DNA of 64,000 nt from a virus (IMGVR_UViG_3300004255_000002:26530-90529); one strand, 5' to 3'. Numbered from the stretch's first letter, positions 60,863-63,418 are shown. Numbers and translations are program-made. The notes: generated by a model from the sequence alone, not told the origin.

Positions 60863-60864
60863 GC

Positions 60865-60892
60865 TTGACCAATTGTTTGAATGTGTTATGAT
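60865..60892 (+). promoter_or_regulatory. Phage promoter heading the RNA island
   Basis: TTGACC-16 bp-TATGAT with extended TG. Confidence 0.75.
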
Positions 60893-60898
60893 GTATCT

Positions 60899-61336
60899 AC
60901 GTTGCAAGATTAAGGTAGCGAAGAACACAAGAATTGATGGGTGGGTTGAGTCTCTCCCTTAACTGGTGACCGAATAATTCGGGGTACTAACGAGCTTTTA
61001 GCGGGGCTTTCGTGGCGGTAGAGCATACGATTAGGTTAGGAAGAAATACATGGTGCAACAGTGAGACTCAGGATAAGGTTCATTTGGGTACCTTATCCCC
61101 AGTGTTGGCGGGTAATGGGAAGTACAACCATTGGTCGAAAGTGAAATCCCAGCACTGGGGATAGGGTAAGCAGAATCCTTGCAAGGTAGTTAGTAGCCTA
61201 GGGCATCGTAAGTGAAGGTGGAAACCCTGATACGCGATATCCCTAAGTGGCTAACCAGTAGTAAGATGGAGGTATATAGAGGCACCTTACTTCGTAAGGA
61301 AGGTCGATACCAGAATATTACTGATTAGGTATTTAT
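60899..61336 (+). ncRNA. Candidate large structured ncRNA (about 440 nt), family unassigned
   Basis: No ORF of 60 aa or more. 18-bp helix 61091-61108/61149-61166 with G-U pairs, 8-bp long-range helix 60947-60954/61063-61070, further stems. Confidence 0.6.
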
Positions 61337-61412
61337 AGGCGAGTAGTTCAACTGGTAGAACAGTACCCTTTGACGGTATATGTTGGAGGTTCAAGTCCTT
61401 CCTCGCTTGCCA
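61337..61412 (+). tRNA. tRNA-Gln (anticodon TTG)
   Basis: Full cloverleaf: AGGCGAG/CTCGCTT acceptor, GTACC-CT TTG AC-GGTAT, GGAGG-TTCAAGT-CCTTC, G73, encoded CCA. Confidence 0.93.
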
Positions 61413-61425
61413 GAATAGATATAAA

Positions 61426-61501
61426 GGCGAAGTAGCTCAGTTGGCAGAGCAGAGGGTTCATATCCCTAGGGTCGATGGTTCAACTCCATCCTTCGCAACC
61501 A
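61426..61501 (+). tRNA. tRNA-Met (CAT), initiator-like
   Basis: Cloverleaf with unpaired 1:72 (G/A), three G-C pairs in the anticodon stem (GGG/CCC), A73, CCA. Confidence 0.88.
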
Positions 61502-61506
61502 GTTAT

Positions 61507-61634
61507 GCAGTGCGTTACAGGTCTGCCCGTCCACCAGCCCCAATTGCAAAAGGCAGGTTAAGGGAATACAGATAGGGTAGGAAGTGGGAGTCGCGCTCCA
61601 CTTAGGGAGGTTCGAGCCCTCTCGCATTGCGCCA
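61507..61634 (+). ncRNA. Enlarged tRNA-like RNA A (128 nt)
   Basis: 8-bp acceptor GCAGTGCG/CGCATTGC, T-arm GGAGG-TTCGAGC-CCTCT, long variable-type arm, G-CCA end, no canonical D or anticodon arm. Confidence 0.75.
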
Positions 61635-61642
61635 GTTTTAAT

Positions 61643-61788
61643 GGGTAGTAGAAGCACGAATGAAAGCTAAATGGCCTTATAGGTAGTGCACGGTCTTTAA
61701 GATAGATAGGTGAGTAATTAGGGTGGATGCTTGAGTAGAGAGATAAGCTCCTCTATGACGTGGGTTCGACTCCCATTACTACCTGCCA
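61643..61788 (+). ncRNA. Enlarged tRNA-like RNA B (146 nt)
   Basis: 8-bp acceptor GGGTAGTA/TACTACCT, T-arm GTGGG-TTCGACT-CCCAT, variable-type arm TAGAG/CTCTA, G-CCA end. Confidence 0.75.
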
Positions 61789-61796
61789 GAGTTATA

Positions 61797-61883
61797 GGAG
61801 GGTTCCGCTAGGTTGGCTGGCAAATCGGTTTGAACCCGATGGGAACCGAAAGGTTAGGGGTTCGACTCCTCAGCCCTCCGCCA
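61797..61883 (+). tRNA. tRNA-Ser (TGA), 8/4 acceptor/T-stem type
   Basis: GGAGGGTT/AGCCCTCC 8-bp acceptor, 4-bp T stem, ATCGG-TT TGA AC-CCGAT, variable arm AACC-GAAA-GGTT, G73, CCA. Confidence 0.9.
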
Positions 61884-61887
61884 GTTA

Positions 61888-61990
61888 TGTTGGGTAGTGT
61901 AAGCAGCACAGCATCGTGATAGTGGGCACCAAAATCTCTTGAGGTCACACAGCGGAGCAAGATAAGGGACGACACCTTAACCAACTACCA
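61888..61990 (+). ncRNA. Degenerate tRNA-like RNA C (about 103 nt)
   Basis: GTTGG/CCAAC acceptor core, TA linker, GTG/CAC D-like stem, TAAGG-7 nt-CCTTA T-like arm, A-CCA end. Confidence 0.5.
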
Positions 61991-61991
61991 G

Positions 61992-62152
61992 TAAAGTGCG
62001 GCGTGGAGAATCATAGACACGCAAAAGCTAGAAATATGCTGAGGGTCTGTCCTTGGGGAAGAAAAGAGAATCCCGCTTCTAGGCTCGTGCGGGAGGAGGA
62101 CTTAGTTGCCAGTCCTAGAGCAACGAGTGGGAGTAATGACCCACCACTTAAA
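61992..62152 (+). ncRNA. tRNA-shaped RNA D with a large central insertion (about 160 nt)
   Basis: TAAAGTG/CACTTAA acceptor-like stem, D-like arm GCGTG/CACGC, T-like arm GTGGG-AGTAATGA-CCCAC, no encoded CCA. Confidence 0.45.
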
Positions 62153-62155
62153 GAA

Positions 62156-62485
62156 CGGAGAAGCCTGTAGGTACAGGTATGGCATCCTTATGGGGTGGCA
62201 TGGTAGCGCGAAACTAGACTAGGTTATGCAGGGGTACTTTTCAGACGGGGTACAAATGCAGGGCAGTGGAGCTAGACCTTCGTAGCCCAAGGTAGAAGAC
62301 CGAACTACCCTCTAGCTACACCAAAGCAGTAGACGTAGCCATGCCTGAATCCCTATACGGTCAAGACACGGTGCGATTGTCCGATGGAAACAAAATGCCG
62401 CAAGGCCAGCGACCTAACTAAGTCGTTAAGTGTAGGGCTACCAGAACAGTCACAAAGTCGGCGACAGGGTGCAAAGCCCTGACCA
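62156..62485 (+). ncRNA. Candidate structured ncRNA E (about 330 nt)
   Basis: Non-coding with multiple helices (GGCATGG/CCATGCC, GCTAGA/TCTAGC, GGTAG/CTACC, GCC-GCAA-GGC). Ends CAGGG-TGCAAAG-CCCTG-ACCA. Confidence 0.45.
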
Positions 62486-62493
62486 ATTAAATA

Positions 62494-62521
62494 TTGACAA
62501 ATTAATTCAATCTGTTAATAT
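62494..62521 (+). promoter_or_regulatory. Phage promoter (second RNA transcription unit)
   Basis: TTGACA-16 bp-TAATAT with extended TG. Confidence 0.75.
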
Positions 62522-62815
62522 ACAAGTAAGGGAGTGAAAGTTGGTACATTAGGTATTCGAGCATAGGAGAGACCAACAATGCTACTCCAACCAAATAGAG
62601 TGAAGGTGTCCAAGCAATTATGGGGCAGTGCCATAGGCCAACCACTACTAGGAGACAGACCTAGCACTCGACCAAATCCAAACGCGAAGTGCGCTAGACG
62701 CCGAAATCGGAAAGACTGGAACGTGCGCTGACCTGCGGATAATTGCCATACCCTACAGAACTAAAACTGAGTGGCTGTAAGATGGGTGACAGGGCGGAAA
62801 GCACGCTCAAACTAA

Positions 62816-62865
62816 CATCCCTGATGAGCTAGTGAAATCCTAGCGAAACGTGAGAGCGTAGGATG
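62816..62865 (+). ncRNA. Hammerhead ribozyme, type I
   Basis: CATCC / CTGATGA / GCTAG-TGAAATC-CTAGC / GAAA / CG-TGAGAG-CG / TA / GGATG. All core nucleotides are present. Predicted cut after GUA at 62860. Confidence 0.9.
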
Positions 62866-63142
62866 CGCCACACTAAAGGCATATAGGTGGAAACAAGTGG
62901 CTATACCACCTCAGTACTAGGCAGACGATATGACCCAGCCCGAAGGGAGAATCTAACAGGCCCTAGTAGCAAAAATCGTGAATAGCAAACGTGATACTTG
63001 GCACGTAGTCCAAGTACAGGAGAAGACCTGATAGGGACATAAACCCTTACGAGAACGAGCCTAGCGAACTGGCGTGATAGGCAAGAAACTTCAATTCAGA
63101 GCGCAGGAGGCTAAAGCCGACTCTCAGAGCTTGAGAGACCAC

Positions 63143-63217
63143 AGCCCTATAGCTCAGAGGTAGAGCAGAGGACTCATAATCCTTTGGTCACTGGTTCGAG
63201 ACCAGTTGGGGCTACCA
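63143..63217 (+). tRNA. tRNA with CAT anticodon, most likely tRNA-Ile2 (lysidine, reads AUA)
   Basis: Cloverleaf closely resembling E. coli ileX (C4-G69, C5-G68, CTCATAA loop, TGGTC variable loop), A73, CCA. Confidence 0.85.
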
Positions 63218-63238
63218 TAAAACTACACGGAGGTAGAT

Positions 63239-63418
63239 ATGGCAGTAGAAGTACCGAAAGACTTTACACCATGGATGACATTCACCGAGGCACTAGAACA
63301 GTACCTAGACCAGCGAGAAATCATCCAATCTTGTCACGTAAGCCACGGCCCTAAGTATGATACCGCCGTAGAGCATGCTCAGAATGCCGCAATCCATATG
63401 GAGTACTTCACATCATGA
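63239..63418 (+). CDS. Small hypothetical protein (59 aa)
   Basis: GGAGG RBS, ATGA overlap with the next gene. Not in the ORF track. Confidence 0.6.
   Translation: MAVEVPKDFTPWMTFTEALEQYLDQREIIQSCHVSHGPKYDTAVEHAQNAAIHMEYFTS

Follow-up and report, generated by a model that had tools for sequence, protein, structure and literature searches.

We analysed a 64-kb window of an uncultured tailed phage (bases 26530-90529 of the 90.5-kb IMG/VR virus record IMGVR_UViG_3300004255_000002) and found that its sole large protein-free stretch, an island of ~2.35 kb at positions 60863-63238 of the window, is, as far as its sequence can tell, a real promoter-driven region of tRNAs and other non-coding RNAs (ncRNAs). 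Its distinctive element is a pair of tRNA-like RNAs, A and B, in which an 8-base-pair (bp) acceptor stem and a 5-bp T stem (an 8/5 branch) are combined with an encoded G-CCA end. The four tRNAs of the island, the 8/4 fold of one of them, and the two tRNA-like RNAs are solid as sequence features (Table 1), and from these we infer how the RNAs are processed and what they might do. The reading as a whole, in which a non-coding operon is transcribed and processed, A and B are stable and a hammerhead ribozyme cleaves, we hold to be probable rather than assured.

The recognisable parts all have precedents: (8/4) tRNA-Ser in phages, phage type I hammerheads, and the species 1 RNA of phage T4 (rnaC). 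Searches with ARAGORN and Rfam, which an earlier sequence-only reading of the window had proposed as checks, call the four tRNAs and miss A, B and the hammerhead; together they leave more than 80% of the island unannotated, including a complete hammerhead.

Table 1. Features predicted in the island (positions in the window; nt, nucleotides).
Feature	Position	Strand	Description
Promoter P1	60865-60892	+	TTGACC-16-TATGAT with TG; divergent family member, sigma-70-type; predicted start near 60899
S1	60899-61336	+	~438-nt non-coding leader, runs directly into tRNA-Gln
Long S1 hairpin	61089-61168	+	20-nt arms (90% complementary), branched 40-nt tip
tRNA-Gln(UUG)	61337-61412	+	ARAGORN; Rfam 63.5 bits; CCA encoded
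tRNA-Met(CAU), initiator-like	61426-61501	+	ARAGORN; Rfam 56.2 bits; CCA encoded
tRNA-like RNA A	61507-61634	+	128 nt; acceptor/T-arm geometry, G-CCA
tRNA-like RNA B	61643-61788	+	146 nt; acceptor/T-arm geometry, G-CCA
tRNA-Ser(UGA), 8/4 allo-tRNA-type	61797-61883	+	ARAGORN; G73-CCA
S2	61889-62485	+	~600 nt, unassigned non-coding; first ~100 nt form "C"
Promoter P2	62494-62521	+	TTGACA-16-TAATAT with TG; near-consensus; predicted start near 62528
S3	62528-63142	+	~615-nt non-coding leader of tRNA-Ile2; contains the hammerhead
Type I hammerhead	62793-62869	+	core 62816-62865; predicted cut 62860/62861
tRNA-Ile2(CAU), presumably lysidine-modified	63143-63217	+	ARAGORN; Rfam 68.1 bits; CCA encoded

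The island is non-coding

The longest open reading frame (ORF) in any of the six frames of the island is 63 amino acids (aa). With a cut-off of 70 aa, the island is the sole large ORF-free gap in the 64 kb, and only one other gap exceeds 400 nt (~410 nt). The longest stop-free run is 81 codons, against a median of 122 in composition-matched shuffles, of which 1.6% had a run as short. Stop triplets on the + strand number 152, compared with 128.6 +/- 8 in shuffles, and TAG occurs at double the frequency seen elsewhere in the window. When scored with a codon model derived from the phage's own long genes, every + strand ORF of the island reaches at most 0.22 bits/codon, whereas the real small genes next to it score 0.31-0.59. 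By ORF length, stop-codon excess and codon model, the island is thus non-coding, bearing out the sequence-only reading, which had seen no credible coding sequence there. Two other assemblies of the same phage contain the island at 100% identity, so it is not an assembly artefact; they also offer no sequence variation.

That the island conceals at least one small protein gene is very hard to credit. An example would be the 50-codon ORF at 62579-62731, which starts ~50 nt past promoter P2 and has a Shine-Dalgarno-like AGGAG (62565-62569) 9 nt upstream of its ATG at 62579. However, its codon-model score is -0.085 bits/codon, far from that of the real neighbouring small genes, and its product has the low complexity and the surplus of R, K, N and P that translated A-rich sequence would have.

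Promoters and predicted transcription units

Both promoters that the sequence-only reading had placed in the island (at 60865 and 62494) belong to a family of 12 copies. A strict pattern finds these 12 sites on the + strand of the window and none on the - strand, spanning 23795-63733. The family consensus is TTGACW-AATTAWWTCAATMTG-N-TATTAT, with a conserved spacer (AATTAWWTCAATMTG) and a TG-extended TATTAT box, and a copy of P2 is also found elsewhere in the phage genome. This consensus would tag close relatives many times over, but no genuine match appeared in either collection scanned: the five matches in IMG/VR are all by chance, and none of the 60 loci from JGI metagenomes proved related by blastn or tblastx.

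Host sigma-70 RNA polymerase would transcribe the island from these two copies of what looks like the phage's early-type promoter, giving two polycistronic precursors with no predicted terminator between them. The first would consist of the leader S1, tRNA-Gln, the initiator-like tRNA-Met, A, B, the 8/4 tRNA-Ser and S2; the second would consist of the leader S3 with its hammerhead, tRNA-Ile2 and downstream genes. As no + strand terminator is predicted anywhere within the island, transcription of unit 1 can continue into unit 2, and that of unit 2 into the gene at 63239, whose Shine-Dalgarno site and ATG lie directly 3' of tRNA-Ile2. The successive CCA ends are followed by short spacers (GTTAT, GTTTTAAT, GAGTTATA and GTTAT) that read exactly as first described. 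RNase P together with 3' trimming at the encoded CCA ends would free six tRNA-shaped molecules, as acceptor/T-arm geometry and the short, uniform spacers suggest.

Two tRNA-like RNAs without anticodon arms

A and B had been named as tRNA mimics from the sequence, and closer analysis agrees: in each, the acceptor stem is 8 bp long and the T stem, which carries a TTCGA loop, is 5 bp long, and each has a long extra arm and G-CCA. In A, the acceptor stem is perfect, the T loop is UUCGAGC, and a ~9-bp extra arm lies directly 5' of the T arm, with an irregular central hairpin of ~60 nt replacing the D and anticodon arms. B also has a perfect acceptor stem, followed by a large central domain, an ~8-bp extra arm and, directly 3' of this, a T arm with a UUCGA-type 7-nt loop. 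The adjacent tRNA-Ser has exactly the same T-arm core (GGGTTCGACTCC). Compared by hand, A and B differ on both sides in six of the eight acceptor pairs and two of the five T pairs, with pairing kept throughout.

Neither RNA is called by ARAGORN, with introns allowed or not, or by Rfam, and neither has a credible anticodon arm. We rejected two more conventional identities. As intron-bearing tRNAs, A and B give no hit with ARAGORN at default settings, and lowering the threshold to 85% yields implausible calls only. As a transfer-messenger RNA (tmRNA), B scores 12.3 bits on RF00023, where 47 are required, and matches with its 3' end only; ARAGORN finds no tmRNA at default settings and one spurious call at the 85% threshold. 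In place of the G3·U70 of tmRNA, A has an A-U pair at 3:70 and B a G-C pair.

The 8/5 (13-bp) acceptor/T branch of A and B is like that of bacterial tRNA-Sec. They differ from the (8/4) tRNA-Ser group in having this 8/5 branch and no D or anticodon arms. We read A and B as derivatives of tRNA in which only the acceptor/T minihelix, a class II-type long extra arm and G73-CCA remain, and which could not decode. They most likely accumulate as stable tRNA-like RNAs, in the manner of T4 species 1 RNA, and would bind proteins that recognise tRNA, such as RNase P, the CCA-adding enzyme and possibly seryl-tRNA synthetase (SerRS).

A purpose-built detector recovers both A and B in the window. Applied to both strands of ~2 Mb of phage loci, including many tRNA clusters, it found no other 8/5 element longer than 100 nt. 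We folded four of the matches with 7-bp stems; three are run-ons from neighbouring tRNAs, and the fourth is a tRNA-Asp with an extra hairpin in Klebsiella phage vB_KpM_FBKp34. This 114-nt tRNA-Asp(GUC) (L126:2211-2324) carries the additional hairpin, of ~36 nt, between its D and anticodon arms; it is annotated in the record and missed by ARAGORN.

T4 species 1 RNA as the closest precedent

Phage tRNA clusters have long been known to hold RNAs that are not tRNAs, and the species 1 and 2 RNAs of T4 are unexplained after fifty years. These two small stable RNAs, rnaC (species 1, 139 nt) and rnaD (species 2, 119 nt), lie at the end of the T4 tRNA cluster, and phage EcS1 has an rnaC homologue between tRNA-Phe and tRNA-Trp. 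Their function is still unknown (PMC9697503). A three-phage alignment of rnaC (T4, EcS1 and UFV01) contains 11 covarying pairs. The fold opens with a terminal stem and a ~60-nt central hairpin, continues with a ~10-bp extra arm that immediately precedes a canonical T arm, and is completed by the 3' strand of the terminal stem.

This is the same order of arms as in A and B, which likewise lie inside a phage tRNA array. However, the terminal stem of T4 rnaC is 7 bp long and contains two U·U mismatches, and CCA is not encoded, whereas A and B have perfect 8-bp stems, a 13-bp branch and an encoded G-CCA. A covariance model built from the three rnaC sequences matches A and B in T-arm fragments only (E>1). 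The resemblance lies in architecture, with no demonstrable homology. Neither rnaC nor rnaD matches any Rfam family at E<=1, and a blank Rfam result therefore says little about RNAs of this sort.

The island adds two clean, independent examples of the rnaC-like body plan, with no sequence relation to T4 rnaC. This hints that an acceptor/T minihelix joined to an extra arm and a large central hairpin is a recurrent solution and not a T4 oddity. The 13-bp branch with its encoded G-CCA also makes biochemical tests of A and B straightforward.

A type I hammerhead in the leader of tRNA-Ile2

The hammerhead that the sequence-only reading had placed in unit 2 is present with a full core and three stems. 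Stem I is open and pairs CAUCC with GGAUG (5 bp), with a distal GGCG/CGCC helix (4 bp). The core CUGAUGA is followed by stem II (GCUAG/CUAGC, 5 bp) with the loop UGAAAUC, and then by GAAA. Stem III (ACG/CGU, 3 bp) is closed by the hexaloop UGAGAG, and the cleavage triplet is GUA. The conserved positions (C3-U4-G5-A6-N7-G8-A9, G12-A13-A14, A15.1-U16.1, H17 and the G10.1-C11.1 pair) are all found at 62821-62860. The 64-kb window has a single match to the pattern CTGATGAG-N(8-30)-CGAAAC, and 100 shuffles have none. The motif is solid as a sequence feature, and its cleavage is a prediction.

Searching IMG/VR for the core together with loop II (UGAAAUC) returned 86 stretches, about 45 of them clear type I hammerheads in which stems I and III are properly formed. 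Stem II covaries among these: seven other sequences occur, each fully paired or with one mismatch. The island hammerhead is like the type I hammerheads of phages and prophages (Rfam clan CL00010) in its full core, three stems, open stem I and short stem III, and it shares its 5-bp stem II and loop UGAAAUC with the ~45 from IMG/VR. It differs from other phage type I hammerheads in its position, in the middle of the 615-nt leader of tRNA-Ile2, and in its flanks; the flanks of the ~45 sisters are unrelated to S3. Cleavage would divide this leader into pieces of ~333 nt and ~282 nt.

In a different setting, an IMG/VR locus (L036:2793-3337, - strand) and ~25 sister IMG/VR contigs have a type I hammerhead with the same loop II immediately 3' of a permuted alpha-type tmRNA gene carried by a phage. 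The tmRNA of this locus scores 128.7 bits on RF01849 and 116.5 bits on RF04321, and the arrangement looks as if the hammerhead trims the tmRNA precursor.

Canonical tRNAs

All four tRNAs that had been read from the sequence (Gln, fMet-like, 8/4 Ser and Ile2) are called by ARAGORN, and three (Gln, Met and Ile2) also pass the gathering score of the Rfam tRNA model (RF00005, 29 bits). In the first CAU tRNA, G1 faces A72 in a mismatch and three G-C pairs close the anticodon stem, but C11-G24 is as in elongators; "initiator-like" is a fair label for it on sequence grounds. This tRNA has no E. coli match. The 3' CAU tRNA can be assigned to tRNA-Ile2 because it is 81-84% identical, over 99% of its length, to genes annotated as tRNA-Ile (in 5258 of 5426 E. 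coli genomes).

The tRNA-Ser falls under the Rfam tRNA threshold and reaches 25 bits on the tRNA-Sec model. In this molecule U8 pairs with A65, and A49·A65 is unpaired. Among 50 unique relatives from IMG/VR, N8:N65 is paired in every one (as G-C, U-A, A-U, C-G or G-U), and the canonical T-stem pair 49:65 is absent in 41. Since N8:N65 covaries and 49:65 is mostly lost, we assign it the 8/4 fold. Its variable arm (AACC-GAAA-GGUU) and G73, the serine identity features of the class, would fit charging by SerRS. Relatives at 75-82% identity occur in cultured Klebsiella, Salmonella and Shigella phages as well as in IMG/VR, and (8/4) tRNA-Ser have been reported from bacteriophages (Mukai et al. 2017, PMC5389517). 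With its 8-bp acceptor stem, 4-bp T stem, long variable arm and G73, the tRNA-Ser of the island is a member of this (8/4) tRNA-Ser/allo-tRNA group with no substantial difference.

The tRNAs for Gln, Ile2 and Ser read CAA, AUA and UCA, respectively. In the phage, CAA accounts for 55% of Gln codons, AUA for 20% of Ile codons and UCA for 28% of Ser codons. These three elongator tRNAs would help to decode the favoured A-ending codons of the phage, and the canonical tRNAs fit ordinary codon supplementation.

The long non-coding stretches

The sequence-only reading had described RNAs of 440, 330 and 615 nt as structured. Only one hairpin stands out. S1 as a whole folds better than its shuffles (z-score -3.4), a signal due to this hairpin; in a scan with sliding 120-nt windows, 61060-61179 reaches z -6.0 to -6.9 on the + strand and about -3 on the - strand, and all other windows lie within about +/-2. 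S2 and S3 are like shuffles (z -0.05 and -0.7), as are the two pieces that hammerhead cleavage would leave (z +0.6 and -1.5). In this folding model, the long S1 hairpin is the island's sole strongly structured element and may be an RNase III or other processing site. Its 5' arm (ACCTTATCCCCAGT) can pair alternatively with an upstream segment at 61066-61079 (14 nt, 86%) in place of the downstream arm (20 nt, 90%). The stretch 61066-61168 may thus be a two-state element; no U-tract follows it.

Mimics C and D of the sequence-only reading could not be confirmed. The segment "C" opens with a 27-nt junction motif that matches the A-to-B junction, or start of B, at 22 of 27 positions, and its positions 61893-61898 and 61984-61989 can pair to form a terminal helix of 6 bp. 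A T arm and an in-register CCA are both missing, and the segment does not resemble A, B or tRNA-Ser significantly. No "mimic D" could be identified.

Several other identities were considered for these stretches. S1-S3 give no residual tRNA signal even at an Rfam E<=10, which speaks against a tRNA graveyard. Rfam matches to YrlA and Plastid-ycf2 are artefacts of adjacent or antisense tRNAs. A CsrA sponge of the CsrB/RsmZ type was rejected, with GGA counts in S1, A/B, S2 and S3 at or below those of shuffles (z -1.4 to -0.5). A search of S1-S3 for repeated motifs or binding sites gave nothing convincing, and inverted repeats between parts of the island are about as many as estimated by chance.

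GOLLD and ROOL are large RNAs found near phage tRNAs (PMC5737381; bioRxiv 10.1101/2024.12.08.627333), and the island is like them in having large non-coding stretches that adjoin tRNA genes in phage DNA. We think it distinctly improbable, however, that S1, S2 or S3 is a new large "ornate" RNA of this kind, freed by RNase P and the hammerhead and with a function of its own. Such an RNA would suit the sizes of 440-615 nt, the promoters, the adjoining tRNAs, the purine-richness (reminiscent of large structured RNAs), the depletion of ORFs, and the hammerhead and RNase P sites that could set its ends. However, no Rfam family, including GOLLD (RF01998) and ROOL (RF03087), matches at the gathering score or at E<=10. 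In addition, folding energies equal those of shuffles except for the one hairpin, the composition of S3 (34% A, 17% T) limits pairing, and no homologue, and hence no covarying pair, was found. S1-S3 thus differ from GOLLD and ROOL in having no model match and no conserved or thermodynamically favoured fold. They would be transcribed leaders or spacers, with no sign of folded functional RNA beyond the S1 hairpin.

As a caution, the lack of ORFs and the presence of promoters are not enough to make 1.6 kb "structured RNA". The earlier expectation that most of the island is non-canonical RNA missed by tRNA scanners stands for A and B, which ARAGORN and Rfam overlook, and for the hammerhead, which the Rfam models overlook, but not for large structured RNAs, which give no thermodynamic signal.

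Search for relatives and rival readings

Searching 50,697 phage genomes (INPHARED) by blastn with the island, and with A, B and tRNA-Ser together, returned tRNA matches only. Scans of IMG/VR, which were for exact patterns only, found neither the B/C junction motif nor the consensus of the 3' halves of A and B. At 75 loci with an 8/4 tRNA-Ser, the flanks are not shared with the island. The relatives of the downstream 104-aa protein lie at loci that lack tRNAs and show no synteny, and the upstream 88-aa protein has no relative except itself. We also searched 14 IMG/VR records whole (seven reached through a 616-aa protein and seven with relatives of the 104-aa protein) and found no homologue of the island. 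The nearest phages, at ~50% identity in the 616-aa protein, have no island; tRNAs occur in two of the five related records checked, two in each and isolated.

Several results weigh against the reading of the island as a processed ncRNA operon. First, searches of INPHARED and of the relatives' records, and scans of IMG/VR and JGI metagenomes for patterns, gave no homologue of A, B, S1, S2 or S3, and as a consequence no fold in the island other than the tRNAs has covarying support. Second, the folds of A (z -1.5) and B (z 0.0) are not set apart from shuffles by their stability. Support for the two RNAs therefore comes from tRNA-specific motifs, the terminal helices, and their position in a tRNA array with uniform short spacers after each CCA; their RNase P processing, stability and protein binding are inferred. 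Third, the hammerhead scores 20.8 bits on RF00008, below the gathering score of 48.5, and has no match to RF00163 at E<=10. The Rfam models are insensitive to this class, since all seven sisters tested, which share its stem II and loop, also stay below threshold (one at 30.8 bits on RF00008, six with no hammerhead match at E<=0.1). Finally, the minimum-energy fold of the hammerhead region uses a competing ACGCUC/GAGCGU helix, which makes self-cleavage a real question.

A rival reading is that the island, apart from its four tRNAs, is mostly junk: a decaying, once larger tRNA cluster and non-functional transcribed spacer, with A, B and C as pseudogenes and the hammerhead as a relic or passenger. 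We consider this unlikely, though it is a serious alternative. It would explain why S2 and S3 fold like shuffles and are kept in no relative, why "C" resembles a truncated copy of the start of B, and why related phages lack the island and have only a pair of isolated tRNAs; unannotated gaps with broken tRNA-like pieces also occur in the tRNA arrays of other phages. However, A and B retain perfect 8-bp acceptor helices, canonical T loops and an encoded G-CCA despite their non-cloverleaf bodies, and random decay would break these first. The hammerhead similarly keeps every core nucleotide and all three stems. Decay of a tRNA cluster also sits poorly with the blank tRNA signal of S1-S3, and neutral decay does not predict ORF depletion and stop enrichment beyond composition. 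Moreover, the phage is otherwise tightly packed, as its gaps show.

A bolder version of the operon reading would make A and B the founders of a new class of anticodon-less phage RNAs, processed by the host, perhaps charged by SerRS, and acting as decoys or carriers, with at least one of S1-S3 a new large structured RNA freed by RNase P and the hammerhead. We regard this combination as quite unlikely. If true, A and B could be decoys against tRNA-directed defence nucleases, or aminoacyl donors outside the ribosome. The sequence-only reading had likewise suggested translation takeover or the countering of tRNA-targeting defences; nothing in the sequence gives evidence of either, and such a role is conjecture.

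Genomic context

The phage is ~90 kb long, and its record is 99% complete according to CheckV. It encodes a tape measure protein, a tail protein, a DnaB-like helicase and a DEAD/ResIII helicase, and the + strand carries all long genes of the window. The island is surrounded by small orphan genes of early type, among which there are no Pfam family matches. On a Logan contig from SRR5431164 (L122:8611-12234) the same phage runs past the right end of the window, with small genes, a dCMP deaminase and a protein of the Phage_phiTE_072 family; the genome thus does not physically end where the IMG/VR record does.

In Shigella phage B2 (L125:2173-2500), a 328-nt unannotated gap in the tRNA array lies just upstream of an 8/4 tRNA-Ser and contains a tRNA-like element with a T arm and acceptor, without CCA. 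The tRNA coordinates in this record are 28 nt off those of ARAGORN.

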